A DNA stretch of 64,000 nt from NCBI GenBank assembly GCA_025210555.1, contig JAOARL010000019.1, positions 338 to 64,337 of the forward strand, in the 5' to 3' direction. Positions 32,015 to 56,395 of this stretch are shown here, in pieces. The DNA is from Clostridia bacterium. GTDB lineage: Bacteria > Bacillota > Clostridia > Lachnospirales > JAOARL01. A model generated the notes under the pieces. The model did not search any database and was not told the origin of the DNA. It saw only the letters and a program-made list of their open reading frames with translations. The translations under genes were made by a program, and so were the position numbers. The stretch's first letter is position 1; every line of letters starts with the position of its first letter.

Positions 32015-32025
32015 AGGAGAAGCTT

Positions 32026-33322: not shown

Positions 33323-33410
33323 ATCAACCTCAATAAAATCAAGGGTTGAAGAAAAATAAAATAGAAACTTCTAACGAATTTCTAACATAAGAAAAAATTT
33401 AATAGTTATT

Positions 33411-33459
33411 AAGGGCATAAAAATCTCAAGGAGTAATAGGGATTTCTATGTTCTTTTTT
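33411..33459 (+). terminator. cassette-leader hairpin + U-tract, copy H1
   Basis: aagggcataaaaatc...gatttctatgttctttttt, preceded by ttaatagttatt. RBS and ATG (33478) follow within 18 nt. Confidence 0.75.
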
Positions 33460-33477
33460 AGTGAAAAGGAGAGTAAC

Positions 33478-36400
33478 ATGTTTAAGTTAGATAAGAAAAT
33501 AAATTTAAAAGAGGAAAATGTTGATTTGCTGAATACGTCAATATATGCTGAAACTATTTTAGAAGCAATTGAAAAAGTCCCAAGCAAAGAAAACTTTACC
33601 ATTGGTTTGTTTGGCGAATGGGGGAGTGGTAAATCATCAATTGTTGAAACTGTCGAGGCAGAATTGATGAAAAGTGATGAAAAACAGTATAAGGTTATAA
33701 ATTATGATGCTTGGAAATACTCAAATGATTCTTTTAGAAGGACTTTTTTATTAGAAGTACAAAAAGAATTATCGGTTAAGAAATTAGAGTTATTTGATTC
33801 CTTTTATACAGATAAGCAGGATGAAGTTGAAGCTAAAACTGTATATGACAATAAAACGATATATATTTCACTTTTTTTCTTTGGGGTTGCTTTTTTGAGT
33901 TTGCTTTTATCAGATATTAATATTGAGTCTAAGTTAACCCTTTCAGTACTAATATCGGTGTTGGGGTGGCTAATCAATTTATTCAATAACAATAAGTTTT
34001 TCCTAAAACAAACTGTAGTTAAACCTAAATTTTTTTCGCCAGAGCAATTTGAAGAATGCTTCTCAGAAATGATATGTGAAACTGTTTTAGAAAATAAGAA
34101 ATGTAAAATATTAAACTGGATTGATATGTTTTTTGGTAAAAAAGTGGATAAACTTATAATTGTAATTGATAATATAGATAGGTGTCATTCAGAACAGGCA
34201 TATTCGTTATTAACTGATGTAAAAAACTTTTTAGGAAAACACAATAATGTTATTTTTTTAATTCCAGTTGATGAAGCTGCGATAAAGAGACATTTAGAAA
34301 ATTATAGTGTAGATAATGCGGAGGAATTTTTAAGGAAAATTTTTAATGTAAGTTTGAAATTACCTATTTTTAAGGAATTAGATTTGTTTGATTATGCAGT
34401 TAAAATTAATGAAAGTAATTCATTTGATTTTGATATTAATACATTAGACTTGATTTCAAAAGAGTATGCTAGTAATCCACGTAGAATTATACAAATTATG
34501 AATAATTTGGAACTTGAGAAAGTAAAATTTTTGAAAGATAAAGAACTAGAAGACATATGGATAAAATATGAAAATGTAATTTGTAAAATACTTATAATCA
34601 AAGAAGAATGGCCTGTTTTCTATAAAAAATTATCAAAAGATTATTCTCTAATTAGAGCTGATTTGTCAGAAGAAAAAATTAGAGAATTATTAGAAATAGA
34701 TGAATTAAATACAAAAGTTCATAAACTATTTAATTTTTTAAATCGAACTAAGAATTATACTACTAGAACATCTGATTCAATTCTAGAAGCAATTATATAT
34801 AACAAAAAAGGAGTTGAAGGAATATCTAGTGAAATAATTACTTCGATTGAAAATAAAAACTTCGAAGAGATAATCGGACATTATGAAAAAGCGAATAAGC
34901 TCAAGTTGATTGACTATATAGTAAGAAAACTAGAAGTAGCAATTAAGTTGAAAAAGCATAAAGGTGAGGCCTTAAATTTGTTTGAAATAATATTAACTAT
35001 TGATGGATTTGATATGATAACAAGAGGTTTAAACATAAGGATTCAAGATGCAATTAATGGAAGTGTCGGTCAATTTCTATTTTATATAAATGAAGTTAAA
35101 GCGCTAATTTTATATAATAATAATTTAATGGAACAAGATATCAATTATTTAAGAGAAGCAATAAAATCAAATTTATCTGGAGGTTCATTTCTTGTTAATA
35201 ATAGACCTGACTATAGTCAAGAGATGGTAGATGTAAATAAATCTATTTTATTATCAATATTAAAATACAATATTGATAAGAGCTTTGCAAAAGAAATTAA
35301 AAAATCTGCAAGTGAATTATATTTTAGCGAGGAAACAGATTTGAATTTAGCTGAGCTTAATATTAATGATATAACTTTTGATACAATAATTGATAAAACC
35401 TTCATAGATAATTTACTGCAAAAAGCAAGTAGTATTTATGAAAATCCATATTGGAATGAGTATAAGTATATTTTAGATAAAGCACAGTATAAAAGTATAA
35501 TTAGTGGTCAAGGTATTACAAAAATTAATAGCACGTATCTTAATTTTGACGCAATAGGTAATGAAGGATTTAAGGGGATTTTGTTTGAAATACAAAAAGT
35601 TGTTACTAACCTCAAAAATAAAGACTTAAATAAAGAATTGAAAGAAGTGTTAGCTCAATTATACAGTAAAGTTAAAGCAAGAATGAATCATCCGTCTTAC
35701 AATATGTATAATTGGATAATTGCTACAGAGAATAAGGAAGAGATATTAGATAAATATATAGAGCTGTTATTTAAAATTTATCATGTTTTTGGGGGAGAAA
35801 TCAAGATAACAGAGGAATTAGAGAAATGTTTTATAGATGATTATGCACGAGAAAATATATATGATAAGTTTAATTCATATTATAATAAGACAAAATTTCA
35901 CTTTAAATCGATGAGTGAAATGATATTAAGAAATGCTGATTTTAATAATGATAAATTTATCGCTGTTTTTAATACTGGATTAGATAGAAATACTTTTGAA
36001 GCTGCTGATGTGAACTTAATAAAATCAAAATTAAAAGATGCTATGATATTGGTTAGAGAAGGTAATGACAAAGTAGTTAGTGTTTTTGAAAAAATGCTAG
36101 TAGAAGAAAAATTTATAAATATTATTAAAGAAGTTATTGCTGAACAAGATTTGGAAGAAATTAAGAAAGTACCGATAAAAATAAAAAAAATATTTTTTGA
36201 AGAAGTTTTAGATAATTTGAAAGACTATTTGGAAGACATAGAGATGGTTTCTAATATCTTTGAGGAGTATGCTTTAGCAAGAAAAAAAATAATTAATTTA
36301 ATAATACGGATGCTGCAGGATAAAGATGAAATAGATACTGCGATTGAGTTAGCTAAAAAAATTGATAAAAAGCTTTTAGGTAAGGTTGATTATAAGAGAT

Positions 36401-36480
36401 TAAAAAGAGAGCTGGATGAAAAAATTGGGAATGAAGAATTTGATGAAGAGCTAAGAGAAAAAATGACAAATGTTTTTTAA
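33478..36480 (+). CDS. KAP-family P-loop NTPase with transmembrane insertion (Tmn-like defence NTPase)
   Basis: Walker A GLFGEWGSGKSS and NYDAWKY. Two TM helices (IYISLFFFGVAFLSLLL, LTLSVLISVLGWLINLF) lie between Walker A and Walker B (LIIVIDNIDRC). The ATG at 33478 has RBS AAAGGAGAG. The ATG at 33448 lies inside hairpin H1. Confidence 0.8.
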   Translation: MFKLDKKINLKEENVDLLNTSIYAETILEAIEKVPSKENFTIGLFGEWGSGKSSIVETVEAELMKSDEKQYKVINYDAWKYSNDSFRRTFLLEVQKELSVKKLELFDSFYTDKQDEVEAKTVYDNKTIYISLFFFGVAFLSLLLSDINIESKLTLSVLISVLGWLINLFNNNKFFLKQTVVKPKFFSPEQFEECFSEMICETVLENKKCKILNWIDMFFGKKVDKLIIVIDNIDRCHSEQAYSLLTDVKNFLGKHNNVIFLIPVDEAAIKRHLENYSVDNAEEFLRKIFNVSLKLPIFKELDLFDYAVKINESNSFDFDINTLDLISKEYASNPRRIIQIMNNLELEKVKFLKDKELEDIWIKYENVICKILIIKEEWPVFYKKLSKDYSLIRADLSEEKIRELLEIDELNTKVHKLFNFLNRTKNYTTRTSDSILEAIIYNKKGVEGISSEIITSIENKNFEEIIGHYEKANKLKLIDYIVRKLEVAIKLKKHKGEALNLFEIILTIDGFDMITRGLNIRIQDAINGSVGQFLFYINEVKALILYNNNLMEQDINYLREAIKSNLSGGSFLVNNRPDYSQEMVDVNKSILLSILKYNIDKSFAKEIKKSASELYFSEETDLNLAELNINDITFDTIIDKTFIDNLLQKASSIYENPYWNEYKYILDKAQYKSIISGQGITKINSTYLNFDAIGNEGFKGILFEIQKVVTNLKNKDLNKELKEVLAQLYSKVKARMNHPSYNMYNWIIATENKEEILDKYIELLFKIYHVFGGEIKITEELEKCFIDDYARENIYDKFNSYYNKTKFHFKSMSEMILRNADFNNDKFIAVFNTGLDRNTFEAADVNLIKSKLKDAMILVREGNDKVVSVFEKMLVEEKFINIIKEVIAEQDLEEIKKVPIKIKKIFFEEVLDNLKDYLEDIEMVSNIFEEYALARKKIINLIIRMLQDKDEIDTAIELAKKIDKKLLGKVDYKRLKRELDEKIGNEEFDEELREKMTNVF

Positions 36481-36489
36481 AAAATCAAT

Positions 36490-36592
36490 GTGAGAAAATG
36501 GAGGTCGGCTGCATCGAATCCACATCCAAGTTTTTAGAGCTGTTTTTGTCTAAGAATTGACGTGAATGTAGTAAGATGTGACACATCTCCAT
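36490..36592 (+). repeat. conserved cassette right-end module R1, ending in the CATCTCCAT core
   Basis: About 80 percent identical by eye to 50803-50903. It contains an inverted fragment of the ssrA T-arm region and ends with the core at 36584-36592. Confidence 0.75.
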
Positions 36593-36680
36593 TATTGCAG
36601 TTTAATGAAAACAAGAGATAAAGGAAAATGAATTAGAAATCTCTAACGGAATTCTAAGATGAGAAAATTTAATAGTTATT

Positions 36681-36729
36681 AAGGGCATAAAAATCTTAAA
36701 GAGTAAGCGGAGATTTTATGCTCTTTTTT
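36681..36729 (+). terminator. cassette-leader hairpin + U-tract, copy H2
   Basis: aagggcataaaaatc...gattttatgctctttttt. The about 100 nt including it is about 85 percent identical by eye to 33360-33459. Confidence 0.75.
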
Positions 36730-36741
36730 GTGGAGGTAAAA

Positions 36742-39267
36742 ATGAGTTATTCAAAGTGGAAAAAAATTGACTTACATATACATACGGATAAATCTAAAGA
36801 AACAAAGTCCAATAAAGATGAGTACAAAGTTGTTTTTTCAGTAGAATCCTTAATTAAGAATTTAAAGAAAAACGAAGTGGATATGATTTCTCTAACGGAC
36901 CATAATATTATAAATGAAAAAGCCTATGATGAATTAAGTAAAACCAAGACAGCTTATTTAGTTGGAGTAGAATTAGACGTAGTTATTGAAGAAGAAGATT
37001 TAAAAAAATATATAGAAGCACTCAATAGTAATAAATCTGAAAAAATCGAAAACAAACCATTTCATGCATTAATTCTTTTTAAATCAAATAAGCATAAGAT
37101 TATATCAGATAAACTAGAGTCTATGTATAAAAATATTAGCGATAAGGTTCTTGAAAAAAAGATAGATTTACTTAAAAACAAAAAGGTAAGAGCGACAACA
37201 TTCAGAAATATTGTAGAGGCATTTAAGGATGAAGAGTATTTTATTATAGCACATGCTGGTAATAAGCCTAAGTCGATTGTAGGACCATATAAAAAAGCTA
37301 ATAAGTTAGAAGAAGCGCAGGTAGAAATTTTAATGGGTGGAATTTCAGCGTTAGAAATGCATGGTAGTATAAGTGCGGAAAAAGTAATTAGTCGTTATAA
37401 TCAGGAATTTGAAAAACTTATTAAGTCAGATTTCAAAGGAGTTAAGCCTACATCATATGTAGTTTTTTCCGATAATCATAATTGTGAAGAGTATGCTTTA
37501 AAGGATTTTCAGACATGGATAAAGGGCGACACAAATTTTGAGACATTAAGACTTGCATTTTCAGATCCACAAAGTAGAATATTTACAGATTTAAAAGAAC
37601 CTACATATACTTCAAATTACATAGAAGAGGTTGTTATAAAAACAAAAGGGTCTGCTGACAAAAAGAGTATTAAATTATCACCATATTTAAATGTAATAAT
37701 AGGAGGACGTTCATCAGGGAAAAGTTTATTATTTAATACAATAACATATTTAAATAATGAATTTAGTGAAAGCGATAAATCAGTTTTTAACGAAATATAT
37801 AAGGAGATGCTGGATTTAGATAATACCACTGCAAAGTTAAGCAATGGAGCTCATGATTTAATGATTTCAATAACAGGGGAAACATATTATCAGGAAAAGA
37901 TAATAAAACTATTTGAAAAAGATGAAGATTTAAAAGATAATTTAGAGGGATTTTTTGTTAAACCTAATATTGAAATTATCAATTCTAATGAGAAAGAATT
38001 GGAAGAGCATTTTGATTTGTTTATAAAGACTTATGAAAGATACTATAATATAAAGAATAAAATTGATAAGGGAAGTATTTTTGAAAGAATGCAAATAGCA
38101 ATTAAAAGTTCAAACAAAGTTATAAATATGGATATAGAAAAACTAATAGATGAAATAGAAAAGATCGATTATGAAGTTGCATTAAAAACAATAGAAGATA
38201 TGGGAAATAGCATATATGAGTGGAAGAATATTGAATTAGGTGATAAAACTTTATTTGATGAAAAAGAACTTCTTATTTTTGATGAGCTATTAGGAGTGCT
38301 AGAAACAAAGAAGGAAAGACTTAATTTTATTGAAAGGAAGTATAGAAAGGTAAATATTTTTTTTGACAAAGTCAAAATTATAAATGATAGTTATCTGAAT
38401 ACAGAATTGACGCAAGAAAAGCAGAATATTGAAAATGAAAAAAAGGTGTTGGACCAAAATTTGAAAGATTATAAGGCGTTTTTTAAAGCTAAAATGGAAT
38501 TAAAGTTGGTATGTGCGGATATCGAAAGTATAGAAGTTAAGAGTGATGATATAAAAAAAGAGGAAGGAAAATATATTTTTGTAACTAAGGTTAATTTTGA
38601 GGTGAACAAGAATAAAATAATAGAAGAGTTTTTTAATGAGACAATCAATAATTATGATACTACTAAAGATTTATATGATAACATTTGTAAATTAGCGGAT
38701 GTAAAATTTGAGAAGATAAGATTAAAAAGAGAAACCAAAGATGGTAAATCACATAAAAAATTAAATGAAAAATTAAAGACATATTTAAGTGAATGCAAAT
38801 CTAAAATTGAATATGAGATCATAGAAGAAAATGATTTTGGAACGCCAATAAGCACATTATCAACTTCTCAAGGTAAAAAGGCTTCAATGTTCTTAGATAT
38901 TAAGTTGAATAGGTATATAGAAAAGGCAGAAAAGAATATATTGATAATTGATCAGGTGGAAGATAATATTGATAACAAGTATATAAGCGAAGAATTAGTA
39001 GATTTTGTCAGAGAGCTTAAGCGTAAGGTGCAGTTAATAATTGTTACTCATAATCCAAGTATTGCAATTTATGGAGATGCTGAAAATATAATAATCGCAG
39101 AAAATAATAATGGTGAGATAACATATGTACAAGGAGGATTAGAAAATCAAGAAATAAGAGATGAGGCGTGCAAAATTCTTGATGGTGGAGAATTAGCATT
39201 TAAAAATAGGATGACTAAGTATAACATAGAAATTTTAGAGAGGGATGAGGAAGAAAGTGGAGCTTAA
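36742..39267 (+). CDS. PHP-domain phosphoesterase fused to an ABC/SMC-like ATPase (Ppl-like defence protein)
   Basis: N-terminal PHP motifs IDLHIHTDKS and SLTDHN. Walker A IIGGRSSGKS, a long coiled-coil insert, signature-like STSQGKK, Walker B ILIIDQVED and D-loop/His IIVTHNP. Confidence 0.75.
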   Translation: MSYSKWKKIDLHIHTDKSKETKSNKDEYKVVFSVESLIKNLKKNEVDMISLTDHNIINEKAYDELSKTKTAYLVGVELDVVIEEEDLKKYIEALNSNKSEKIENKPFHALILFKSNKHKIISDKLESMYKNISDKVLEKKIDLLKNKKVRATTFRNIVEAFKDEEYFIIAHAGNKPKSIVGPYKKANKLEEAQVEILMGGISALEMHGSISAEKVISRYNQEFEKLIKSDFKGVKPTSYVVFSDNHNCEEYALKDFQTWIKGDTNFETLRLAFSDPQSRIFTDLKEPTYTSNYIEEVVIKTKGSADKKSIKLSPYLNVIIGGRSSGKSLLFNTITYLNNEFSESDKSVFNEIYKEMLDLDNTTAKLSNGAHDLMISITGETYYQEKIIKLFEKDEDLKDNLEGFFVKPNIEIINSNEKELEEHFDLFIKTYERYYNIKNKIDKGSIFERMQIAIKSSNKVINMDIEKLIDEIEKIDYEVALKTIEDMGNSIYEWKNIELGDKTLFDEKELLIFDELLGVLETKKERLNFIERKYRKVNIFFDKVKIINDSYLNTELTQEKQNIENEKKVLDQNLKDYKAFFKAKMELKLVCADIESIEVKSDDIKKEEGKYIFVTKVNFEVNKNKIIEEFFNETINNYDTTKDLYDNICKLADVKFEKIRLKRETKDGKSHKKLNEKLKTYLSECKSKIEYEIIEENDFGTPISTLSTSQGKKASMFLDIKLNRYIEKAEKNILIIDQVEDNIDNKYISEELVDFVRELKRKVQLIIVTHNPSIAIYGDAENIIIAENNNGEITYVQGGLENQEIRDEACKILDGGELAFKNRMTKYNIEILERDEEESGA

Positions 39268-39559
39268 TATTGAAATAAAAGAAGGGTCTCTGGTTGTTAA
39301 AGTTAATGATAAAATTAACATTTATAATGCCGAAGAAGGGGCAAATTTAACAAATTTAATTGAGGAAATAGGAGATTCACCAAATAAAGTGAAAGTTATC
39401 CCTTCTACGTTTAATGACTTTAAACTTAAAGTTTATGAAGAAGAAATTTTAGTTAAAATAGTAGAGTATATTTATAAGATAATTGATGCATTTAATGATG
39501 CATATTTTGAAGTTTATGAAAAAGAAAAAGTTAAAAAAACTAAAGGTATATGTAAATAG
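39245..39559 (+). CDS. small hypothetical protein overlapping the end of the PHP-ATPase gene
   Basis: A 104-codon ORF that overlaps the upstream stop by 23 nt. No motif. Confidence 0.5.
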   Translation: MRKKVELNIEIKEGSLVVKVNDKINIYNAEEGANLTNLIEEIGDSPNKVKVIPSTFNDFKLKVYEEEILVKIVEYIYKIIDAFNDAYFEVYEKEKVKKTKGICK

Positions 39560-39718
39560 ACCTTAATAAATGAAATTTGGATATTATAGTTATCTAGTTA
39601 ATTACTATTATTTTTAAAATTAGGTTTATAAGGGAAGAGTATTTGAATTAGAGTTTAATAATAAATAATTAATTAGATTAATTTAATATAATTAAAGAAA
39701 ATAATAAAGGAGGAAAGT

Positions 39719-40195
39719 ATGGCGTATCAAGATATTGCACAAATATGTAAAAACGGGCATTTAATTAATGCCAATTCAAATGAGTATCCAAAAGATAATT
39801 CAAAGTTTTGTAGACGATGTGGAGAGGTGGTCATAGATGAATGTGAAGGATGTAAAAGAAAAATAAAAGGGAATTATGTATATGATGATTATTTTATGCC
39901 AGATGAGTATGTTGTTCCTGATTATTGTGAAGAATGTGGAGAGGCTTATCCATGGACAAAAAAGAAAAAAGAAAGTTTAAAAGATTTATTGCAAGACACA
40001 GATTTAAGTGAAAAGGATCAAAATGATTTTATGAATTACATAGATGACATCATTTCTGAGAATCCAAGAACTGAATTAGCAGTACTAAAAGTCAAAGGAA
40101 TCTTACGAAAAATAACCAGTGGAGCACAAGAAGTGGCAAGAAGCTTAGTTATAGATATTGCTTCGGAGACTATAAAAAAATCATTTGATTTATAA
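39719..40195 (+). CDS. zinc-ribbon protein, DUF2321-like
   Basis: CKNGH...FCRRCG...CEGC...CEECG cysteine pattern. RBS AAGGAGGAA. Confidence 0.6.
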   Translation: MAYQDIAQICKNGHLINANSNEYPKDNSKFCRRCGEVVIDECEGCKRKIKGNYVYDDYFMPDEYVVPDYCEECGEAYPWTKKKKESLKDLLQDTDLSEKDQNDFMNYIDDIISENPRTELAVLKVKGILRKITSGAQEVARSLVIDIASETIKKSFDL

Positions 40196-40203
40196 TCTTA
40201 AGT

Positions 40204-40232
40204 AAAAAAAGCTCCATTATAGGAGTTTTTTT
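40204..40232. terminator. bidirectional terminator between the convergent genes 39719-40195 and int
   Basis: aaaaaaagctcc attat aggagcttttttt-type hairpin flanked by A and T runs. Confidence 0.65.
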
Positions 40233-40235
40233 ATT

Positions 40236-41315
40236 TTAAAATATATTTTTAATAGCATCTGCTTGAGCTTTTACATCAGGATGAGAATAAACATCAGCAG
40301 TAGTAGATATAGTAGAATGTCCAAGTCTATCTTGGACTATTTTTAGATTTACACCACTTGATACAAGTAAAGTTGCATGAGAATGTCTTAAATCATGAAA
40401 TCTAATTTTATTAAAGTTAAGCTCATCACAAAGTTGATGAAGTTTCTTTGACAAGTAATTAACATGATAAGGAACTCCATAATTATGTTTACATACAAAA
40501 TCATTTTCTTCATATAGATTAGCAAAGAACTTAGAATGTTTAGTTTTATGTTCTTTTTTGTTTTTTAAGATTTCAGCCATAACGTATGGTGGAACAGCAA
40601 CCTTTCTTCTACTCTTTTCAGTTTTAAGTTCTGTCATTCCTTCACGTTGTCTAGCTCTTCTTATATTTATAACGTTTTCAGCTGTATCTATGTCTTCATA
40701 CTTTAAACCTAGCAATTCACCTTTTCTTATGCCAGTAGTTAGAGCTAAAAGAAAAGATAAATAATATTCTTCATCTTTAATATAATCTAAGAATAAATTG
40801 ATTTGTTCTTTAGTAAATACACTTATTTCAGGTTTCTTATATTTTGGTAAATCTACAAACTCAGTAGGATTAGTTGGTATTAATCCCATCTTAACAGCAT
40901 GCTTAAGAGCTGTATGAAGAACACCATGAGTATTCTTAACGGTCTTAACAGATATCTTTTCTAATAGCCTGTTATAAAACTGTTGTATATGCATAGGTTT
41001 TAGTTGTTTTAATTTAACTGTACCTACATCATCTCTTATTCTAGATATTATAGTTTCATAAGAACGTATAGTAGATTTTCTAATTGTTAATTTCTTTGTT
41101 TTATACCATTCTTCAAGTAGATCATTAACTGTCATATTTTTTGGGTCAGAAAACATATTGTCTTGAATTCTTTTAAGTATTTCAGGTAAATCTTTTTCAG
41201 CATCTTTCTTTCTATCATATCCACTAAACCATTTTTGCTTTCTTTTTCCTTCTACCATTCCAATATCAACAACTATGTACCACTTATTGTTCTTTTTAGA
41301 TATACTTCCTCTCAT
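40236..41315 (-). CDS. int: tyrosine recombinase / phage-type integrase
   Basis: N-terminal arm-binding-type motif (KWYIVVDIG..GKRKQKWFSGY). C-terminal catalytic R...HDLRHSHAT...GHSTISTTADVYSH (R-H-R-Y). Confidence 0.92.
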   Translation of the reverse strand: MRGSISKKNNKWYIVVDIGMVEGKRKQKWFSGYDRKKDAEKDLPEILKRIQDNMFSDPKNMTVNDLLEEWYKTKKLTIRKSTIRSYETIISRIRDDVGTVKLKQLKPMHIQQFYNRLLEKISVKTVKNTHGVLHTALKHAVKMGLIPTNPTEFVDLPKYKKPEISVFTKEQINLFLDYIKDEEYYLSFLLALTTGIRKGELLGLKYEDIDTAENVINIRRARQREGMTELKTEKSRRKVAVPPYVMAEILKNKKEHKTKHSKFFANLYEENDFVCKHNYGVPYHVNYLSKKLHQLCDELNFNKIRFHDLRHSHATLLVSSGVNLKIVQDRLGHSTISTTADVYSHPDVKAQADAIKNIF

Positions 41316-43196: not shown

Positions 43197-43592
43197 AAAA
43201 CAGATAAAAAGTATATAAAAAACTTAAAATAAGTACCAAAGAAGGTATGAAAATGATGTAAAATTACTGTTTTATAATATGAAAATAGTAGAAAAAAGAA
43301 TGAAATATAAATTAAGGGGGAGGGGGTATCACAAAAGTTTAAGGGTATTAGCTATATGCCGAGCCACTACACACACATTAAAAAAATTCCCTTATGAAAA
43401 GTTTTAAAGAGATTTTATTGAGAATAGTGTTACTAAATAAGGAAGTTATATAGTTATTGAATATACGTTTTAAGGAGAGCTTCATGGAAGCTCTTTTTTA
43501 GCATATGGAATATGTGAAAATGCTTTACAAATCATATATAGAAAATTATAATGAATACAGGCTGAAAAATATACAAATAATAAATGGTTATT

Positions 43593-43629: not shown

Positions 43630-43678
43630 TATAAAGATATAAAACTATATATTTTATGATGAGATGGAGAGGGGTATA

Positions 43679-44971: not shown

Positions 44972-45167
44972 TGCTAGCAGGTTAATATATCGAATTATTT
45001 AAAAAGGAACTATTATTATGTTTTAAAATGAAGATAGAGCATAAATTATTAGTAAGTATTAGTAGAAAAGAATAGTTGTTATGTAGGAAATGTAATTAAA
45101 ATATGATGGGTAAAATAAATAAAAAAGTATTTGTCATTACTATTTAGGGGAAAATATTATTAAAGAG

Positions 45168-46061: not shown

Positions 46062-46088
46062 AAATATAGTATAGAACGGAGTAAAGTG

Positions 46089-47567
46089 ATGTTATTTACA
46101 AATAAACCTATAGAAAATTTGAAATACGATAATGATTATTTTAATATATTACCTAAAGCAGAGATAATTAGTGTATTCTTAAATAAAAATCAAGATAAGA
46201 TAAAGCAAAAAGAAATTAAAATGATCTCTTTGTATGGTAACTGGGGAAGTGGAAAGACAACGTTAATGAAATTTTTAGATAAGGATACAAGATCTAATTA
46301 TAAAACAATATTTTTTGAAGCATGGGAACTAGAAAGAGATTCTGATATAACATTATCTCTTTTAGAAAAACTAGCAGATGAGATTACAGGAAATACAAAA
46401 GTAAAGTTTGAGTTAAAAAGAAGTTGGTTAGAACTTAAGGAACTTTCGAAAGAAATTGTATATAACACCAAGATTAAGTCTCCTATAGTAGATTCACTTG
46501 AAATAGATTTTGGTGCTGCTGTAAAAAATGCATATGAAAAAGTTAGTGAAGAATACGAAAAAAAATCTTTATTTAAAGCAAGAGAAGTATTTAAGGAGAA
46601 ATTTGCAATAATTGAAAGTAAAACAAAAAAGAAGTCAATTTTGATTTTTGTAGATGATTTGGATAGATGTTCACCAGAAAATACTTTGAAGTTACTCACA
46701 GATATTAAATTGTTTTTCACGTTAGGAAGTAAAACTATTTTTTTTGTAGGATTAGATAAACAAGCGGTTAGTAAAGCTGTACAAACAAAGTATTATGATA
46801 TTGTAAAGTCAGAAGAGTATTTAGAAAAAATATTTGATATATCGTTTAATATGCCTAAAACAAATAGTATTAGAAAATTAATAAAGTTGTATGTAGATGA
46901 GGTATTGTTAGTTAAAGTGGATGCAGAGAATACTGTAGATAAATTAGTAAATTTTTTCAAAACAATAAAATTTACAAATCCTAGACATTTAAAAAAAGTA
47001 TTAAATAAGTATTATTTTCTGAAAGATTTATATGAGGGTGAGACAAATTCAAGTATCCCAAAAGGAATTTTCAAAAATGACGTGGTTACAATGATTTTTG
47101 TGTTATATTTTATAGTTATATATGAATATAAGCAGGATATTTATGAAGATTTAAAAGATATAAAGAAAAGAGACAAAGTTTATTATAACTTATATAGAGC
47201 GCCAGGAAGTAAGGACGAACAATCATGGGGGAATCACATGAGCAATTTGTTAACAGAATCTCCGATAAATATAAAAAAGTTGTTAGCGGGTCCAAGTAAC
47301 AGTAGACCAGTAATTGATGAATTTCAAAAGTTGGTATATACATTTACACCATCAGTTAAAAAAGAATTTCATATGAGGCAAGCTCCATATAGGGATATTA
47401 ATGAGAGATTTATAAGACAATTTGAAGATGAGGAGAGAGATAGTATAGCAACTGACTTTTTAAGAGTATTGAAGTATATTTTTGAGGAAAATTCAAAATA
47501 CGACTTGAGTGAAATAAGTGAGTATGATATCAAAAAAATATTTGAGTTTGCAGAATTGTATCTGTAA
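46089..47567 (+). CDS. KAP-family P-loop NTPase (soluble type)
   Basis: Walker A SLYGNWGSGKTT, FFEAWELE and Walker B ILIFVDDLDRCSPEN. No TM insertion is visible. Confidence 0.8.
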   Translation: MLFTNKPIENLKYDNDYFNILPKAEIISVFLNKNQDKIKQKEIKMISLYGNWGSGKTTLMKFLDKDTRSNYKTIFFEAWELERDSDITLSLLEKLADEITGNTKVKFELKRSWLELKELSKEIVYNTKIKSPIVDSLEIDFGAAVKNAYEKVSEEYEKKSLFKAREVFKEKFAIIESKTKKKSILIFVDDLDRCSPENTLKLLTDIKLFFTLGSKTIFFVGLDKQAVSKAVQTKYYDIVKSEEYLEKIFDISFNMPKTNSIRKLIKLYVDEVLLVKVDAENTVDKLVNFFKTIKFTNPRHLKKVLNKYYFLKDLYEGETNSSIPKGIFKNDVVTMIFVLYFIVIYEYKQDIYEDLKDIKKRDKVYYNLYRAPGSKDEQSWGNHMSNLLTESPINIKKLLAGPSNSRPVIDEFQKLVYTFTPSVKKEFHMRQAPYRDINERFIRQFEDEERDSIATDFLRVLKYIFEENSKYDLSEISEYDIKKIFEFAELYL

Positions 47568-47791
47568 TGAAGTTGTATAGAAGGGAGATATTTAAATAAA
47601 AAAAGTTTTGTTTTAATTAGTAATGTTTTTAATATAAAACAAGCTTGGATGACTTCTAACATTCTTCTAACGAAAAAGGGTGTAAAAGGTTCCTAAAGCG
47701 TGTTATTATTATTTTTGAAAAGTGGCCTAGAGCCTTTAAATACGGGAAAAAGGGTGCAAAGGGTTCCTAAAGCTGCCAACTTGCTAAACGT

Positions 47792-47813
47792 GTTCGACTC
47801 CCCCCATCTCCAT
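47792..47813 (+). repeat. attR-type exact copy of the ssrA 3' end
   Basis: gttcgactccccccatctccat is identical to 33299-33320. Confidence 0.85.
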
Positions 47814-47869
47814 ATGTGACATTCACGATAAGACTAGAATGAAGAAAAATTAATAATTGAATAGTTATT

Positions 47870-47905
47870 AAGGGCAGAAAAATCAAGGGATTTTTATGTC
47901 CTTTT
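47870..47905 (+). terminator. cassette-leader hairpin + U-tract, copy H3
   Basis: aagggcagaaaaatc aag gatttttatgtcctttt, preceded by aatagttatt. RBS and ATG follow within 18 nt. Confidence 0.75.
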
Positions 47906-47922
47906 ATAGTGGAGGAAATTAT

Positions 47923-48996
47923 ATGAATTTAATGGAGACATTAAGTAAAACAGAAGAGAGAGAAAATGGAGGAGCTATTGCTAATCATAGATTTGAATTT
48001 CAAGAACATTGGGCTCTAATAAAGTTATTAGAGTTGTTTGTTGATAATGAAGACTTTATGTTAATTATGGAGTTCCATGATGATGTAATGGTATTAGATA
48101 AATCATTAAATCCAAGTTTGATGGAATTATATCAGATAAAAACAAATACAAAAAAAGTTAAAAACATAAATCCTACTAATAAAGAAAATTTAGAATATCT
48201 TAGGAAGTTGATATCTAATTATTCAAAATTTGAAAAGCATATAACAAATATTTATTTCATCTCAAATAAACATTTTAAAATAGGACTTAATGATATAAAG
48301 GATTCAACAACTTTAAATCAAATAAGGTTAAAAGATATAAAAGATGTAGAGATGAAAAAAATAAAGGAAAGTATTTGTGCGGAATGTAAAAAGCAGAATT
48401 GTAATGAAGAGTGTCGAGATGTAATTTTATTTAAAAAAAGTAAGTTGCCATTTGAAAATTTTAATGAGATTTCATATGGAAGGCTAATAGAGTTTTTAAA
48501 AAAAGTTGGTAATCCAAATTTAGAAGATGTAGATGCAATTTATTTTGCATTACTTTCACAAATAAGATTAGTTAACAATGTAGAAGAAAAAGCTAAAGAT
48601 TTTGAGGACTTAATAAAAAATAAAAGTATAACAAAGAAAAAAATGGAAGAATATATGAATGGCCTTAAAAGCAAAATAGAATTAAGAAAAGATTTGAGTT
48701 CAATTAGAACATTTTTAATAGAAAGCGGATTTAACCCTATGGAAGCAATTAAAATAGTAAATGAGTGGAAGAAATATTTTAAAGATAAGATAAATCAAAA
48801 CACGATGTTAGATGAAATAGAAGATAGTATATATGAAATCTTACGAACAAAAATTGATTTGAGCGATGACTTGAAAATTATTGTAAATGAGACGTGTAAT
48901 GAACTTATAGAGAAGAAAAAATTTGATGAAGACATTATTTCAAAAGAATATGTTAAGTCAATGATTTTGGAGAGGGTTATCAATGGAGAAAATTAG
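47923..48996 (+). CDS. Cap4/DUF4297-type nuclease-domain protein (LmuA-like)
   Basis: GGAIANHRFEFQEHWALIKLLEL...MEFHDDVMVLD...ELYQIKT matches the DUF4297 PD-(D/E)xK-like N-terminal block. Confidence 0.65.
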   Translation: MNLMETLSKTEERENGGAIANHRFEFQEHWALIKLLELFVDNEDFMLIMEFHDDVMVLDKSLNPSLMELYQIKTNTKKVKNINPTNKENLEYLRKLISNYSKFEKHITNIYFISNKHFKIGLNDIKDSTTLNQIRLKDIKDVEMKKIKESICAECKKQNCNEECRDVILFKKSKLPFENFNEISYGRLIEFLKKVGNPNLEDVDAIYFALLSQIRLVNNVEEKAKDFEDLIKNKSITKKKMEEYMNGLKSKIELRKDLSSIRTFLIESGFNPMEAIKIVNEWKKYFKDKINQNTMLDEIEDSIYEILRTKIDLSDDLKIIVNETCNELIEKKKFDEDIISKEYVKSMILERVINGEN

Positions 48997-49070
48997 TAGA
49001 GGTTTATTAGAAAAAAAAGAGAAGTATGAAAAATATAAAAAAATAATTAGAAATTTGAGGATGGGTAAAT

Positions 49071-50801
49071 ATGAACAAGCAAATACTATTAAAAAAACTA
49101 AAAATAATGTCAAAAAGTGAAAAAACATTTAAGGAAATAATTTTTGATGAAAAGTTAACTATTTTAAAAAGCGAGTTAGATGGTGGAGACACAACTAATA
49201 GAACTGGAAAATCTTTAATAATGAAAAGTATACCTTATGCATTTGGTGCAGAATTAGAAAAATACACTAAAAACTGGAAAAAATTGAGCATTGTGACTTG
49301 GCTAGAGTTTTCGTACATGAATGACGACTATCTTATTTTTAGAGATGGCGAAAAATTTATGGTTTACAAGAATAATATGATGTTTAATGCTGCAAAAAGT
49401 ATTGGTGAACTTAGAGATGTATATAGTGAATTGTTTGGGTTTAGTATTAAATTGGAGTTATCAAATAGAAGCGGAACTTCAACAATTTATCCAGGAGGAA
49501 TGTTGCTACCATTTTATATAGACCAAGATAAAGGGTGGGATGGTGAAAAACAATCTTTTGCAGATGTTAAATTTATAAAAGATTGGAGAAAGAACATATT
49601 ATACTTTTATACAGGAAGAAGGACAGAGAGATATTATGAAATACTTAAACTAAGAAGTGAACCAACAAAGAAAAGAGAAAAACTGAAGCATGAAAAAGCA
49701 GTCTTAGATAAATTAATTGATGAAGAAGAGTTTAAAAATATTGAATCATTAAAGGTTAATTTTGATTTAAAAGAATTTGAAGAAGAAACCAAAGAATTGA
49801 GCAATCTTTTAAATAAAAATTTAAAGCAAAAAGAATTGATACGAGAAAAACTTTTAAAACTTCATAATAAGCAATTTGAAATTAATCAAGAATATGAAAA
49901 TGCTAAAATTGGATTGGCAGAGTTAAGAAAAGATATTGATTACTTAAATAGCGAAATAAGAACAGAGGTTATTTTATGTCCGCTTTGTGGAACACGACAC
50001 GAAAATGATATTGAAAATAGATTTCTTGTTTACAAAGAAGAAAAAGAGTGTATTAAAATTATTGATAAATGCATTAATGAAGAAAGTAAAATTGCATTAG
50101 AATTAGAAAATGTTAAATTCGAACTTGAAGATATTTCAGCTGAGGTAAAAGAAATACAAGATATAATGGCTAGAAAGAAGGAAAATATAACATTTGAAGA
50201 AGTTGCAAAAGCTGAAGGAGTTAAACATCTTATAAAAGAACTTAAAGATAATTTAGAATATGTGGAAGAGAATATTTCAGGTTTGGATGGAGAAATAAAG
50301 AAGTATACAAATGAGATGACTCAAATAACAAAAAAATCTAAAAGCATTGAGGAAAAATTCCAAGCAACATTTAAAGAATATATTAAAACATTAAATGTAG
50401 TAGATTTTGAGGAAGAGGAGATTCATAAATTAGGTGACAAGATAAGCAGTGGAGGTAGTGATACTGCTAGAGCTATCTTGGCGGATTACTTAGCAATATA
50501 CAAGGTTATAGAAGGGAATCAAGCAATGCCTTTATTTCCAATAATAATAGACTCGCCTCGACAACAGGAACAAGGAACATTAAATTCATCAGCAATATTT
50601 GATTTTTTATTGGCAGATGATACAGAGAATGAAAACTATCAGATGATAATTGCTACTACAGAAATAGATAGCAAATATCAAAAAGATGCAAAAGTATATA
50701 ATTTTGTTGAGGTTAAAAGTTTACTTAAAAAAGAAGGATATGAAGAAACTTTTAGAGAATATCAAAATAATATAGCACATTTTTCAGCATGGACATTTTA
50801 A
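49071..50801 (+). CDS. SMC/Rad50-like ATPase with coiled coil (LmuB/DUF3732-like)
   Basis: P-loop TNRTGKSL, a long coiled-coil centre with CPLCG (hook-like), and C-terminal Walker B-like FPIIIDSPRQQEQ. Confidence 0.6.
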   Translation: MNKQILLKKLKIMSKSEKTFKEIIFDEKLTILKSELDGGDTTNRTGKSLIMKSIPYAFGAELEKYTKNWKKLSIVTWLEFSYMNDDYLIFRDGEKFMVYKNNMMFNAAKSIGELRDVYSELFGFSIKLELSNRSGTSTIYPGGMLLPFYIDQDKGWDGEKQSFADVKFIKDWRKNILYFYTGRRTERYYEILKLRSEPTKKREKLKHEKAVLDKLIDEEEFKNIESLKVNFDLKEFEEETKELSNLLNKNLKQKELIREKLLKLHNKQFEINQEYENAKIGLAELRKDIDYLNSEIRTEVILCPLCGTRHENDIENRFLVYKEEKECIKIIDKCINEESKIALELENVKFELEDISAEVKEIQDIMARKKENITFEEVAKAEGVKHLIKELKDNLEYVEENISGLDGEIKKYTNEMTQITKKSKSIEEKFQATFKEYIKTLNVVDFEEEEIHKLGDKISSGGSDTARAILADYLAIYKVIEGNQAMPLFPIIIDSPRQQEQGTLNSSAIFDFLLADDTENENYQMIIATTEIDSKYQKDAKVYNFVEVKSLLKKEGYEETFREYQNNIAHFSAWTF

Positions 50802-50802
50802 C

Positions 50803-50903
50803 GTGAGAAAATGGAGGTTGACTGCGTCGAACCCCCGTCCAAGTTTAGAGCTATTTTTGCATAAGAATTGACGTGAATGTAGCGAGGTACGGTCCATCTC
50901 CAT
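50803..50903 (+). repeat. conserved cassette right-end module R2, ending in the CATCTCCAT core
   Basis: Homologous to 36490-36592. It contains gtcgaacccccgtcc, the reverse complement of ssrA ggacgggggttcgac. The core is at 50895-50903. Confidence 0.75.
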
Positions 50904-51021
50904 CGCCACTAGACACAATTCGCTGTATCGTAAGTAAGAAAAGGGATACAGACTGAAAAGAATTTGTGGATAACTTTTTTGAATAAGACGTTGAACGTCA
51001 GACACAATTTAATATATTATC

Positions 51022-51065
51022 AAGGGCATAAAAAATTACTAAAAGGGGTTTTTATGTCCTTTTTT
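51022..51065 (+). terminator. cassette-leader hairpin + U-tract, copy H4
   Basis: aagggcataaaaa...tttttatgtcctttttt. RBS AGGAGGG and the ATG at 51083 follow. Confidence 0.75.
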
Positions 51066-51082
51066 ATTAGGAGGGATTACAT

Positions 51083-52300
51083 ATGACTGCTCAAGTCGCT
51101 GTAATGAATAAAAGAGCTGTTGCCTTAGCTACAGATAGTGCTGTAACAATCAATGGTGGAAGTAAAATTTATGATAGTGCTAATAAACTATTTATGTTAT
51201 CAAAAAAGCAACCTGTTGGGATAATGGTATACAGTAATGCAGAATTTTTAAGAGTTCCATGGGATATAATAATAAAAGGTTTTAGGAACTATATCGAATC
51301 TAAAAAGTTTGACTATTTAGGGGACTATAAAAGAGAATTTATGGAATATATAAAATCAAAAAGTGATGAATTCGAACTTGGAAAAACGTTTTCAGTAAGA
51401 AATATATATTCAATGATACTTGAGGATATATACGTTTTCTTAAGATCAAACTATACCGAAAGATACACAGGGGCAGAAGATTTTAATGAACTAATATTTA
51501 ATATTTTAAAGGAATATGACGATATAATAAAAAATGAAAGAGAACTATATGCAGGTTTTGATAATCTTATAGGTGAATTGACTAATTATAAACAAAGTCT
51601 AAATCAAATGATTACAAAAAGATTTGGAAGTTTAAGTAAAAGAAATTTTAATTTAATAAAACAAATTTGTCGTAATTCTTTTAAGAAAGATAGATATCAT
51701 AATGCTATAAGTACAGGTGTGGTTATTGCAGGTTATGGTGAAAAAGAAATTTTTCCAGTACTAGAAAATATAGAGATTAGTACAATGATAGGTAACAGCG
51801 TTGTATATAAGAAGAATGATAAGATTGCTATTAATGAAAGAAGCGATAGTTATGTACATGCTTTTGCTCAAAAGGAAACTGTTAACACATATTTATGGGG
51901 AATTAATGATAGATATATTAATAGTTTTGATGGTATAATAAAAGAAACAGTAATACCATTAAGTAATGATATTGGAAAAGATATGGTTGAAAGAATTTTA
52001 GCTAATTGGCAAAAAGGTATCGAGAAAATATTGGCTGATGCGAGAACTGACAATATTAAACCATTTATGGATGCCATACGCAGTTTGCCTAAGAGTGAAT
52101 TGGGGAATTTAGCGGAATCATTAGTTGATTTAACTTCAATAAAAAGGAGATTTACAATCAATAACTTAAGTAATACAGTTGGAGGTCCTATTGATGTTGC
52201 TATAATATCAAAAGATGATGGGTTTATTTGGTGCAAAAGAAAACATTATTTTGAAGCTGATTTAAATCATCATTTTTTTAAAAATTATTATGAGGGGTGA
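51083..52300 (+). CDS. proteasome beta-subunit-like (Ntn-hydrolase) N-terminal domain protein with a large C-terminal extension
   Basis: The N-terminus M-TAQVAVMNKRAVALATDSAVTINGGSKIYDSANKLFML aligns by eye with HslV/20S-beta. Thr is directly after Met, Asp is at mature position 17 and Lys at about 34. Confidence 0.5.
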   Translation: MTAQVAVMNKRAVALATDSAVTINGGSKIYDSANKLFMLSKKQPVGIMVYSNAEFLRVPWDIIIKGFRNYIESKKFDYLGDYKREFMEYIKSKSDEFELGKTFSVRNIYSMILEDIYVFLRSNYTERYTGAEDFNELIFNILKEYDDIIKNERELYAGFDNLIGELTNYKQSLNQMITKRFGSLSKRNFNLIKQICRNSFKKDRYHNAISTGVVIAGYGEKEIFPVLENIEISTMIGNSVVYKKNDKIAINERSDSYVHAFAQKETVNTYLWGINDRYINSFDGIIKETVIPLSNDIGKDMVERILANWQKGIEKILADARTDNIKPFMDAIRSLPKSELGNLAESLVDLTSIKRRFTINNLSNTVGGPIDVAIISKDDGFIWCKRKHYFEADLNHHFFKNYYEG

Positions 52301-52304
52301 TTAT

Positions 52305-52469
52305 ATGAAAACTAATCTAAAAGATATGCTAGATTTGGAACTTAAAGCAAAAACGTTTGATTATAAATTGGATAATAGTAAGATAAAAAAATCAAAAAAA
52401 GAGGAAAAATTAAAAAAGCATTTAAAAAAGCAAATAAACAAAGAAATGCTATGTTGTTTAAAAAGTTAG
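52305..52469 (+). CDS. 54-aa Lys-rich peptide ending in CCLKS
   Basis: The ATG lies 4 nt after the upstream stop, with GAGGGGTG serving as RBS. It is too short for the supplied ORF track. Confidence 0.35.
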   Translation: MKTNLKDMLDLELKAKTFDYKLDNSKIKKSKKEEKLKKHLKKQINKEMLCCLKS

Positions 52470-52502
52470 GAAAGACATAATAAGCAAAAATTAATAGATA
52501 CT

Positions 52503-52542
52503 AAGGGCATAAAAACTAGAAGAAATTTTTATACCCTTTTTT
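52503..52542 (+). terminator. cassette-leader hairpin + U-tract, copy H5
   Basis: aagggcataaaaa...tttttataccctttttt. No att core lies in front of it. Confidence 0.7.
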
Positions 52543-52653
52543 GTTGAAGTGCAATTATGATAGAAAAAGAAAGATGACACTATTCATGTATTTATGGGGT
52601 ATCAAATTATGAGTAAATAGTTGATTTTTTGATTAATAGAGGGTGAATAAAAG

Positions 52654-53889
52654 ATGACATTAACAAAAATGAGAAGCATGATGAAAGAAATTAATGCCTT
52701 AGCAAAAAATGATGAAAAAAAGGCTAAAGAAGAATTTATCCAGCTGATAAGAGATTTACATAGTGAACGAGAATTTGAAAAAATTTTAGAATTAAGCAGA
52801 ACGGCTAATGGAAAGAAATTTAAAACTGATATTTTTGAAATTGCATATGCATATAGAGAATTAGACTATAATAATGAAGCTGAAAAGATATATAAAGAAA
52901 TATTAAAAAAATATCCTGATAATGTTGCGGTTTTAAATAATCTAACTCTTATTCTTGAAGAAAAAAATGGGATTAGAGATGCTTTTTACTTAATTGAAAA
53001 GGCGTATGCTTTAGAGCCTGAAGATGAAGTTGTTAAAAATAATTATCAAAGAATTGAAGAAAAGATAGCAGAAGTTGAAGCAAGTGAGAGGATGCAAAAA
53101 AATGCATGTTTAAATTTGGAAGATGAAAACGAATTTGTTAGGGCTAAGTTAAATGAATTTATATATAATGTAGAAAAAGATCCAGGTTACAAAAATGAGG
53201 AAATCTATATTGCAAATTGGAAGTTTAAAGTTCTTATGAAAACAAATGAGGGAATAGCTGATTCTTTAAAAATACAGTGGTTAGAAAAAGGATATATAAT
53301 TGATTTAGGGAAAAGAGATAGTAGATATGTTAAATGTTATAAGTTAAATCCGTTTTTGAAGAAATCTTTGGAAGAAATAAAACAATATGAAATAAATAAA
53401 AATTGGATTGAAAATTTTGAAAGTGTTAATAAATTAACTTTGATGAAAATAGATTATTTTAAAAATAAAGTTAGATTAAATAAAGCAAAAAGTAAATATA
53501 GAGATATGTTTTTAAGGGATTATGATGAGATAGTTCTTAATTATATTTTTAAAAATAGTAAATCGACTATTATTTTGGCAGGTTCTTTAGTTGAAATGTT
53601 ATTGATATACTACTGTGAAAAAAAGAAAGTAAAGATAATATCATATACGAGGAATAATAAAAAGGTGTCTAAAAACATTTATGATGTTCAACTTAATGAT
53701 TTACTACTATACTTTGATGAGAATAATATTTTTTCAAAACAATTATTCCATTTAGGTAATATAACAAGAATATATAGAAATTTTATTCATCCTGGAAGAG
53801 AGTTGAAAGAGTCAAATAAATTAGCTTTTTCGCAAGCTGAGATTTGTTATCAAAGTTTGAATGAAATAATAAAAACAGTAATAAGATAA
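52654..53889 (+). CDS. TPR-repeat protein with a C-terminal HEPN-like (RNFIH) module
   Basis: TPR-like AYAYRELDYNNEAEKIYKEILKKYPDNVAVLNNL. C-terminal ITRIYRNFIHPGRE. Confidence 0.6.
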   Translation: MTLTKMRSMMKEINALAKNDEKKAKEEFIQLIRDLHSEREFEKILELSRTANGKKFKTDIFEIAYAYRELDYNNEAEKIYKEILKKYPDNVAVLNNLTLILEEKNGIRDAFYLIEKAYALEPEDEVVKNNYQRIEEKIAEVEASERMQKNACLNLEDENEFVRAKLNEFIYNVEKDPGYKNEEIYIANWKFKVLMKTNEGIADSLKIQWLEKGYIIDLGKRDSRYVKCYKLNPFLKKSLEEIKQYEINKNWIENFESVNKLTLMKIDYFKNKVRLNKAKSKYRDMFLRDYDEIVLNYIFKNSKSTIILAGSLVEMLLIYYCEKKKVKIISYTRNNKKVSKNIYDVQLNDLLLYFDENNIFSKQLFHLGNITRIYRNFIHPGRELKESNKLAFSQAEICYQSLNEIIKTVIR

Positions 53890-54052
53890 TTTGTAAAATT
53901 GTGTCCAGTTTTTAAAATAGGGCGTAGTGAACCCCTATTTAGGAGAAAAGTGATAAATATAGAAAAAAGAGAAAAACTCTGAAGGCTTTATTTATAAAGC
54001 CTTCAAGTTATCTTTTCTATCGAGAGAGGTTGTGGCTAACGTTCTATACAGT

Positions 54053-54062
54053 CCATCTCCAT
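54053..54062 (+). repeat. short ssrA-core copy (ccatctccat)
   Basis: gtccatctccat is shared with 50893-50903. It lies intergenic after a terminator at 53980-54010. Confidence 0.5.
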
Positions 54063-54228
54063 TTTTTGTAATTCTTTATTTATTTTGATAAAGATATGAT
54101 AAGTATAGTTGCAAAAAAATTAAACTATGAAAAAGCTTTACAAAAAACATCGATGAAATTATAATGAAAAAGGGTGTATTTTTGTGAAGATTTTTTTTGT
54201 TAAAAAAATTAAAACAAAATATATTATC

Positions 54229-54265
54229 AAGGGCTAATTATCTAGGGATAATTGCGCCCTTTTTT
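54229..54265 (+). terminator. cassette-leader hairpin + U-tract, copy H6 (variant stem)
   Basis: aagggctaattatc tagg gataattgcgccctttttt. The conserved flanks are kept, and the stem differs from H1-H5 but still pairs. Confidence 0.65.
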
Positions 54266-56394: not shown

Positions 56395-56395
56395 T

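Follow-up and report, generated by a model that had tools for sequence, protein, structure and literature searches.

Tandem islands specific for ssrA, the gene for transfer-messenger RNA (tmRNA), are reportedly the subject of Williams's 'Traffic at the tmRNA gene'. Under the Islander principle for integration at target genes (PMC4383910), an intact target gene accompanied by displaced copies of its 3' end marks site-specific integration, and repetition of such copies marks tandem arrays (PMC4383910, PMC3146451). In the tandem ssrA islands of Dehalococcoides, 15 of 31 are without an integration module (PMC3146451); cis-mobilizable elements (CIMEs) and site-specific accretion have been described for the ICESt1 family (PMC5704250), and successive integrations at tRNA and tmRNA genes push older elements inward in the tycheposons of Prochlorococcus (bioRxiv 10.1101/2020.12.28.424599). 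Here we analysed a 64,000-nt stretch of a Clostridia bacterium genome (assembly GCA_025210555.1, contig JAOARL010000019.1, positions 338 to 64,337; the window), in which seven copies of a hairpin followed by a U-tract lie downstream of ssrA. An earlier note on this sequence had offered three roles for the hairpin: a terminator supplied by each element beside ssrA, a conditional attenuation switch, or an attC-like recombination site. The region is best read as the outcome of a known process, the tandem accretion of ssrA-specific elements, most of them integrase-less, and not as a new RNA switch; each hairpin is probably the intrinsic terminator that ends the left (P') arm of one such element.

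The intact ssrA gene is followed by four displaced, co-oriented 3' fragments of itself. Of the seven junctions, five contain a direct repeat of the ssrA 3' end, placed 56-166 nt before the hairpin. This core reads CCATCTCCAT in three junctions, ACATCTCCAT in J2 and, at 47792-47813, is a perfect repeat of the last 22 nt of ssrA; the others lie at 36583-36592, 50894-50903 and 54053-54062, all on the + strand. The ssrA terminus CATCTCCAT occurs at 36584, 47805, 50895 and 54054 in addition to ssrA's own, making five + strand copies against 0.72 expected on both strands, all of them at ssrA or at junctions, and with up to one mismatch CCATCTCCAT matches the + strand at those five sites only. The integration target predicted from these repeats is ssrA, with its last 22 nt (33299-33320) as attachment core. 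We favour tandem integration because an intact ssrA with co-oriented copies of its 3' end, the pattern used by Islander, is the standard signature of this process.

In these respects the locus resembles the ssrA islands of Dehalococcoides, which likewise have an intact ssrA, co-oriented 3' repeats delimiting unrelated cargo, and many members without an integrase (PMC3146451). It differs in having a tyrosine integrase, whereas the recombinase there is the serine recombinase DsiB, in the very small size of the elements (3.1-3.3 kb, one or two genes), and in a repeat unit that reaches about 90-170 nt past the core and includes the conserved terminator hairpin. Such a hairpin is not described in PMC3146451, in which the word 'terminator' does not occur. 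With the tycheposon arrays the locus shares the inward displacement of older elements, partial repeats of the target gene and integrase-less cargo that includes defence genes. The host phylum and integrase lineage are different, the cassettes here do not each have a replication or integration module, and a conserved terminator module is not reported in the tycheposon paper, which also does not contain the word 'terminator'.

The earlier note had treated the hairpin as a free-standing leader; it proved instead to close, on the 3' or distal side, a junction module of about 150-270 nt in which the ssrA repeats also lie (Table 1). By sensitive BLAST, J1 (33312-33459) and J2 (36584-36729) are 80% identical over 149 nt, the homology beginning exactly at the last bases of ssrA, the end of the acceptor stem; H1 and H2 have a 32-nt identical stretch in common. 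Between J2 and J5 the identity is 67% over 274 nt, a stretch that begins about 100 nt to the left of the core and takes in the hairpin. The left arms of elements A, B, C and D and the J6 remnant are mutually homologous, as are the right arms of A and C. From the hairpin, junction homology continues upstream for 90-200 nt, and its border is the ssrA core and not the hairpin. Right arm, core and left arm together come to about 250 nt, which is the usual size of an attP site (PMC4383910). Pairs of TTCTAAC-type motifs with 11-nt spacing occur in the J1, J2 and J4 arms (33369-33386, 36641-36658 and 47654-47671), and a 27-nt direct repeat, AAAAAGGGTG.AAA.GGTTCCTAAAGC, is present in the J4 arm before the 22-nt core (47673-47699 and 47747-47773). 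Given the arm-binding domain of the integrase, these look like candidate arm-type or accessory-protein sites. Part of the ssrA T-arm (GGACGGGGGTTCGAC) also recurs in inverted orientation in the right arms of C (50811-50840, - strand) and A (36498-36527), some 60-85 nt before the direct core; it could be an extra integrase-binding site or a relic of inverted integration.

Table 1. Hairpins, junction modules, elements and genes of the array in window positions. Element borders follow from reading each junction as upstream right arm, core and downstream left arm; arm assignments are predicted.
Feature	Positions	Strand	Description and evidence
Hairpin H1	33411-33459	+	fold, terminator scan
Hairpin H2	36681-36729	+	fold
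Hairpin H3	43593-43629	+	AATTAT stem, weak T-run
Hairpin H4	47870-47905	+	weak T-run
Hairpin H5	51022-51065	+	fold
Hairpin H6	52503-52542	+	fold; 5' flank ATACTAAGGGC
Hairpin H7	54229-54265	+	AATTAT stem
Possible eighth, diverged hairpin	62740-62778	+	13 bits with the covariance model; weak candidate
J1, left (P') arm of element A	33321-33459	+	90-nt spacer with TTCTAAC twice, then H1
J2	36487-36729	+	right (P) arm of A 36487-36582, core ACATCTCCAT 36583-36592, left arm of B with H2
J3	43515-43629	+	no ssrA core; promoter-like site 43524-43552, then H3; homologous to J7
J4	47568-47905	+	right arm with TTCTAAC twice and 27-nt direct repeat, 22-nt ssrA copy, short spacer, H4
J5	50800-51065	+	right arm of C, core CCATCTCCAT 50894-50903, left arm of D with H5
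J6 remnant	52480-52548	+	no ssrA core; about 25 nt of upstream flank and H6
J7	53890-54265	+	bidirectional terminator of the 411-aa gene, core CCATCTCCAT 54053-54062, promoter-like site, H7
Element A	33321-36592		left end H1; KAP NTPase
Element B	36593-47813		left end H2; integrase-bearing; includes core-less J3 with H3
Element C	47814-50903		left end H4; Lamassu LmuA and LmuB
Element D	50904-54062		left end H5; 405-aa and 54-aa open reading frames (ORFs); core-less J6 with H6; 411-aa TPR protein
Region after D	54063 onward		J7 with H7; NUDIX/PfkB/deoxyribosyltransferase cluster
A cargo: KAP-family P-loop NTPase, PifA/QatA-like	33478-36480	+	Pfam PF07693; PADLOC PifA/QatA
B cargo: Ppl/AriA-like AAA_21 ATPase, 104-aa ORF, DUF2321	36742-40195	+	Pfam, PADLOC
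Tyrosine integrase, phage-type	40236-41315	-	Pfam; Arm-DNA-bind_4 domain
Phage replisome-organiser gene	42291-43196	+	Pfam PF09681
Cargo after H3: 430-aa ORF, 297-aa ORF, KAP NTPase (PDC-S20-like)	43679-47567	+	Pfam, PADLOC
C cargo: Lamassu LmuA, LmuB	47923-50801	+	PADLOC, 1e-60 and 4e-122
ssrA (tmRNA gene)	32974-33322	+	ARAGORN; Rfam RF00023, 158.5 bits
smpB	32515-32973		SmpB Pfam match; directly 5' of ssrA

All seven hairpin copies were recovered where the earlier note had placed them, each followed by a U-tract and co-oriented on the + strand. A search with TTAYYAAGGGCNNAWWWWW at up to one mismatch returned six sites in the 64 kb, every one a family copy, against 0.18 expected from shuffles; in the seventh copy (52503) the 5' flank reads ATACTAAGGGC. 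The flanks that the note had described as common to all copies hold as a consensus but not strictly, the 3' side being GTTCTTTTTT in H1, GCTCTTTTTT in H2 and GTCTTTTGTTG in the 43593 copy. Two copies do have an AATTAT stem, as it had said, but these are H3 (43593) and H7 (54229), and not H6 and H7 as stated there. Outer stem and flanks are conserved, and the inner stem and loop differ in sequence and length. Every copy folds into a 12-16 bp stem and then a T/U run, with a folding free energy of -9 to -17 kcal/mol; the stems alone, of 12-16 pairs, have -7.5 to -15 kcal/mol and are followed by 4-6 T. Like intrinsic terminators, the hairpins therefore combine a G+C-rich stem base, a 12-16 bp stem and 4-6 U immediately 3'. 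They depart from typical ones in that several have loops of 10-12 nt and the stem interiors are A/U-only, so that efficiency may be partial, and in that they form a conserved, repeated sequence family and are not independent terminators, one per gene.

A covariance model had been suggested in the earlier note; we built one from the five ATAAAAA-type copies only, and it recovered the two untrained AATTAT-type copies, at 54213-54268 (37.9 bits, E 6e-6) and at 43578-43631 (26.3 bits, E 0.002), as its next-best matches within the island region. A generic terminator at 2902-2956 scored 30.9 bits, above the 43593 copy, and therefore the model alone cannot separate diverged members from ordinary AT-rich terminators; the 43593 copy was assigned to the family because of its flank identity GGTTATTAAGGGC and its homology to J7. 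MAFFT misaligned the 3' arms of the AATTAT variants, and pairs were counted on the model-fitted alignment, where 92% of cells were paired and both sides had changed in 6 of 15 pairs. The observed covariation values were reached by 0-6 of 500 shuffles, and pairing fell to 41-64% when the 3' partners were slid along. With seven sequences, essentially two lineages, and an alignment fitted to structure, the covariation appears good but not overwhelming, and it agrees with the proposal that the stem variants still pair under selection on structure. Folds of the two strands differ: in six of the seven copies that of the + strand is clearly the more stable, because of 1-3 G·U pairs, and these strand-specific pairs point to selection on the sense-strand transcript and not on a double-stranded palindrome.

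About 15 other strong terminator-like hairpins were detected in the window by our own terminator scan, and their sequences are unrelated. With the covariance model, no further convincing copy was found in window positions 1-33000 and 55000-64000 or in the 10 kb of contig that follow, bringing the sequence examined for the motif to 74 kb, 53 kb of it outside the 21-kb array stretch. The possibility, named in the earlier note as one that would undo its proposal, that the motif is the generic terminator of this species was rejected on these two grounds. A dispersed palindromic repeat accumulating in intergenic DNA, of the miniature inverted-repeat transposable element (MITE), repetitive extragenic palindromic (REP) or Correia type, would also yield seven similar intergenic palindromes. 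This is extremely unlikely here: the copies are confined to one strand and to 21 kb starting at ssrA, none lies in the other 53 kb, they are embedded in longer junction homology with ssrA cores, and there are no target-site duplications and no terminal inverted repeats beyond the stem. MITE- and REP-type repeats were rejected for their strand, location and longer homology.

The third role suggested in the earlier note makes the hairpin itself the crossover site, recombining as folded single-stranded DNA or as an inverted repeat in the manner of attC. Such a role would suit an outer stem and flanks that are conserved while the interior varies, the near-fixed distance from hairpin to cargo start in four unrelated cassettes, and J3 and J6, which have a hairpin and no ssrA core. 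The array also resembles integron arrays in its co-oriented, mostly promoterless short cassettes and in imperfect palindromes whose structure is conserved over sequence, and in either case an upstream promoter could conceivably give expression that depends on position. attC sites end in the motifs RYYYAAC ... GTTRRRY; the hairpins end in (T)TAT(T/C)AAGGGC ... G(C/T)CCTTTT, and inspection of their flanks by eye found no attC end motifs. At the head of the array stands smpB-ssrA, not an IntI-class integrase with attI and a promoter. The sole recombinase is of phage type, with an arm-binding domain and prophage relatives, and lies away from the array start; five of the seven junctions have a conventional direct-repeat ssrA core, separate from the palindrome, to supply the crossover; junction homology ends at that core. 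The conserved run of 4-6 T after every stem is not needed for recombination, and with the strand-specific G·U pairs it indicates that the palindrome, unlike that of integrons, acts on the RNA sense strand. We consider an attC-like role very unlikely.

Returning to tandem integration, the hairpin stands at the ssrA-proximal end of the element in every copy, and in our window-wide scan H1 was the first terminator 3' of ssrA, itself a highly expressed RNA gene. In the mechanism that we propose, an element would consist, in order, of a left arm ending in the terminator, defence cargo, a right arm and the ssrA core, and an incoming element would recombine at the extreme 3' end of ssrA. Because that crossover falls at the mature end of tmRNA, the element must bring the 3' trailer and terminator, a point that is seldom stated. 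If it came without a terminator, transcription from the strong promoter would enter its genes and the tmRNA precursor would be altered. Each new arrival at ssrA would displace older elements and their terminators downstream, giving the observed series; every hairpin would have served, or would still serve, as the ssrA terminator and would now also end transcription from the upstream cassette. Judged from sequence, the hairpin most likely serves as an ssrA terminator brought in by each element, and of the roles proposed in the earlier note this one is the best supported.

A comparable arrangement was sought in viral contigs. The identical ssrA 3' 21-mer was found in 84 IMG/VR contigs, and 80 loci were analysed. 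After two-piece tmRNA genes had been removed and the remainder dereplicated, a strong terminator followed the fragment at 30-70 nt in 5 of about 12 fragment-only groups. Terminators supplied by elements after ssrA fragments thus recur and are not universal. Many of the 84 contigs carried two-piece (permuted) tmRNA genes, with the acceptor piece before the 5' piece, and in one family of about 19 contigs the ssrA fragment had a strong terminator at about 52 nt.

The position of the terminator bears on how the cargo is transcribed. The distance from the T-run to an ATG supported by a ribosome-binding site (RBS) is 12-18 nt for the copies at 33411, 36681, 47870 and 51022 (18 nt from H1 to the RBS and ATG of element A), and 49, 111 and about 190 nt for those at 43593, 52503 and 54229. 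The earlier note had given a spacing within about 18 nt for its first four copies, H1 to H4; the 43593 copy, H3, does not share it. A gap of 12-18 nt that has to hold the RBS leaves no room for a promoter, and the note was right on this point for the four copies. By scan and inspection no convincing promoter was found between hairpin and gene, within the hairpin or in the spacers, in AT-rich DNA where promoter scans stayed at the shuffle level except for one conserved site. This site, TTTACA-17-TATAAT, matches 11 of 12 consensus positions, lies 40-63 nt upstream of the hairpin in J3 (43524-43552) and J7 (54137-54165), and gives the two best promoter matches in the 23.6 kb scanned. Transcripts from it could run through the hairpin into the cargo or stop there as a short RNA. 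The long loops (10-12 nt in several hairpins), the A/U-only stem interiors and the short T-runs of H3 and H4 make partial read-through plausible, and the four closely spaced cargo genes are probably expressed, as far as their layout tells, by residual read-through from ssrA or from upstream cassettes. In this way, cargo without a promoter of its own can, from its place right behind a terminator, draw low-level expression from a very strong host promoter.

The same layout could be explained if each defence gene had a regulated attenuator in its 5' leader, which an antiterminator protein, a small RNA or a signal would open, for example on phage infection; toxic cargo would then stay silent until it is needed. 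The promoter-free gap in front of four genes would fit such a switch, as would the need for transcripts from the J3 and J7 promoter-like sites to cross the hairpin and a cargo of defence genes, some of them probably toxic. Folding of the full leaders revealed no competing fold or mutually exclusive antiterminator of the kind that defines an attenuator: the pair probability of the terminator stem was at least 0.97 in the six junctions that could be scored, and the J3 hairpin is present in the minimum-energy fold. Rfam searches of 32900-55000 at E up to 10 returned nothing besides tmRNA and chance matches, and membership in a known RNA family was rejected. Leaders differ between the two junction types, and even between J3 and J7 the sequence from promoter to hairpin is not conserved; no antiterminator-type gene was seen in the array; and a switch leaves the association with ssrA cores unexplained. 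The attenuation proposed in the earlier note thus found no support and is distinctly unlikely. Because there is neither a competing fold nor a match to a regulatory RNA family, constitutive leakiness is favoured over a conditional switch.

The cargo between junctions consists of unrelated defence genes (KAP NTPases, a Ppl/AriA-like ATPase, Lamassu and PDC-S20). Elements A, C and D are flanked by cores and have neither a recombinase nor a gene of recognised mobility function, the first trait by which CIMEs are known. A and C carry recognised defence genes; D carries only ORFs without family matches. Like CIMEs, these elements are att-flanked, lack integrase and transfer genes, and are stacked behind the 3' end of a conserved gene together with an element that does encode an integrase. 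The literature derives CIMEs by decay from integrative and conjugative or integrative and mobilizable elements, whereas A and C, which have both ends in common and one or two defence genes each, look like a family of minimal cassettes and not like products of independent decay. They are probably CIME-like integrase-less cassettes moved in trans or in cis and not random deletion remnants. No Pfam or PADLOC match was obtained for the 430-aa, 297-aa, 405-aa and 54-aa products (43679-46061 and 51083-52469), and the 411-aa protein (52654-53889) gave one weak, sub-threshold TPR match only. By position, the cassette genes without a family are candidate new defence genes.

The only recombinase of the array is the integrase at 40236-41315, 7 kb into the array and on the opposite strand. 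Its closest relatives, at no more than 50% identity, belong to ordinary prophages at other targets, one of them beside tRNA-Arg, and their locations say nothing about the att site used here. Element B has a decayed core of phage-like or satellite-like character, to which the replisome-organiser gene belongs. A repressor/cro pair is expected between an integrase and a replisome organiser. The interval of about 1 kb between the two genes here (41316-42290) contains no ORF above 60 aa. Decay of the integrase-bearing element is suggested.

A bolder interpretation, which we regard as unlikely, is that the array is an integron-like platform at ssrA, with integrase-less defence cassettes of about 3 kb, a phage-type integrase acting in trans and expression by read-through from ssrA. 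If so, each cassette would carry a complete attP-like module of about 250 nt (right arm, 10-nt core, left arm), and the leaky terminator that closes the left arm would be fused with the cargo RBS; the integrase would insert, excise and reorder cassettes in trans; and position in the array would set the dose of a defence gene, which shuffling would alter. Should the cassettes turn out to move as a family, Firmicutes-type genomes would have here a compact means, akin to integrons, of stocking and dosing defence genes. Used jointly, hairpin and CCATCTCCAT core are in any case a practical marker for the borders of defence cassettes in this uncultivated Clostridia lineage, and the cassettes they delimit here hold a complete Lamassu system and uncharacterised candidates of 405, 411, 430 and 297 aa.

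Several observations weigh against tandem integration as we describe it. J3 and J6 have no ssrA core, even with 2 mismatches, and for them secondary loss must be assumed. In J2, J5 and J7 the identity to ssrA covers the final 9-10 nt only, the 3' strand of the acceptor stem, and the 12 nt preceding the core do not match ssrA; either these junctions and the 22-nt junction have different crossover sites, or similarity to ssrA never extended into the upstream part. The integrase stands mid-element, 3.6 kb from the nearest junction, its target is putative, and there is one integrase for four to six delimited elements where Islander looks for one per island, so that most members fail the strict form of its rule for tandem arrays. 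A pure terminator does not need the promoter-like site of J3 and J7. The collections searched yielded no relative of the organism, its integrase, its Lamassu genes or its junctions, and contigs of the same population from other samples show an identical array; the population is present in JGI samples 3300045488 and 3300045489 and in SRR21418658, SRR21418663 and SRR21418665. Among these searches, loci anchored on SmpB in GTDB reached at most 69% identity and were without the motif; a 23-mer hairpin probe and a 20-mer right-arm probe were absent from metagenome contigs; in IMG/VR a 16-mer of the hairpin flank gave chance matches only and the right-arm probe none; and the junctions had no match in the phage collection. 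The best protein-database identities were 76% for SmpB, 50% for the integrase and 36% for LmuB. Two Logan contigs end in the left arm of H1, and a third appears to end near H2.

The window has 27.8% G+C, nearly all of its genes are on the + strand, and it corresponds to JGI metagenome contig Ga0495726_27173 (3300045489; 129 kb). The island and its flanks could not be told apart by base composition. Just before smpB, at 30857-32418, lie four small ORFs (101-135 aa) in one orientation, none with a Pfam match. ssrA begins right after the smpB stop codon, and the two genes may be co-transcribed. The tmRNA tag predicted by ARAGORN, ANNKMLAAA, is unusually short, and as the ssrA 3' terminus reads ...CCATCTCCATCA, the CCA end is not encoded. 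Beyond H7 come PDC-S07-like NUDIX and PDC-M11B genes and then the possible eighth hairpin, AAGGGTTGCTTATC...GATGGGTGGCTCTT followed by a T-run, which contains six G·U pairs and lies 20 nt before a 5'-3' exonuclease gene (62799). The island may extend to 62.7 kb, and this last hairpin may be the native or ancestral terminator of ssrA.

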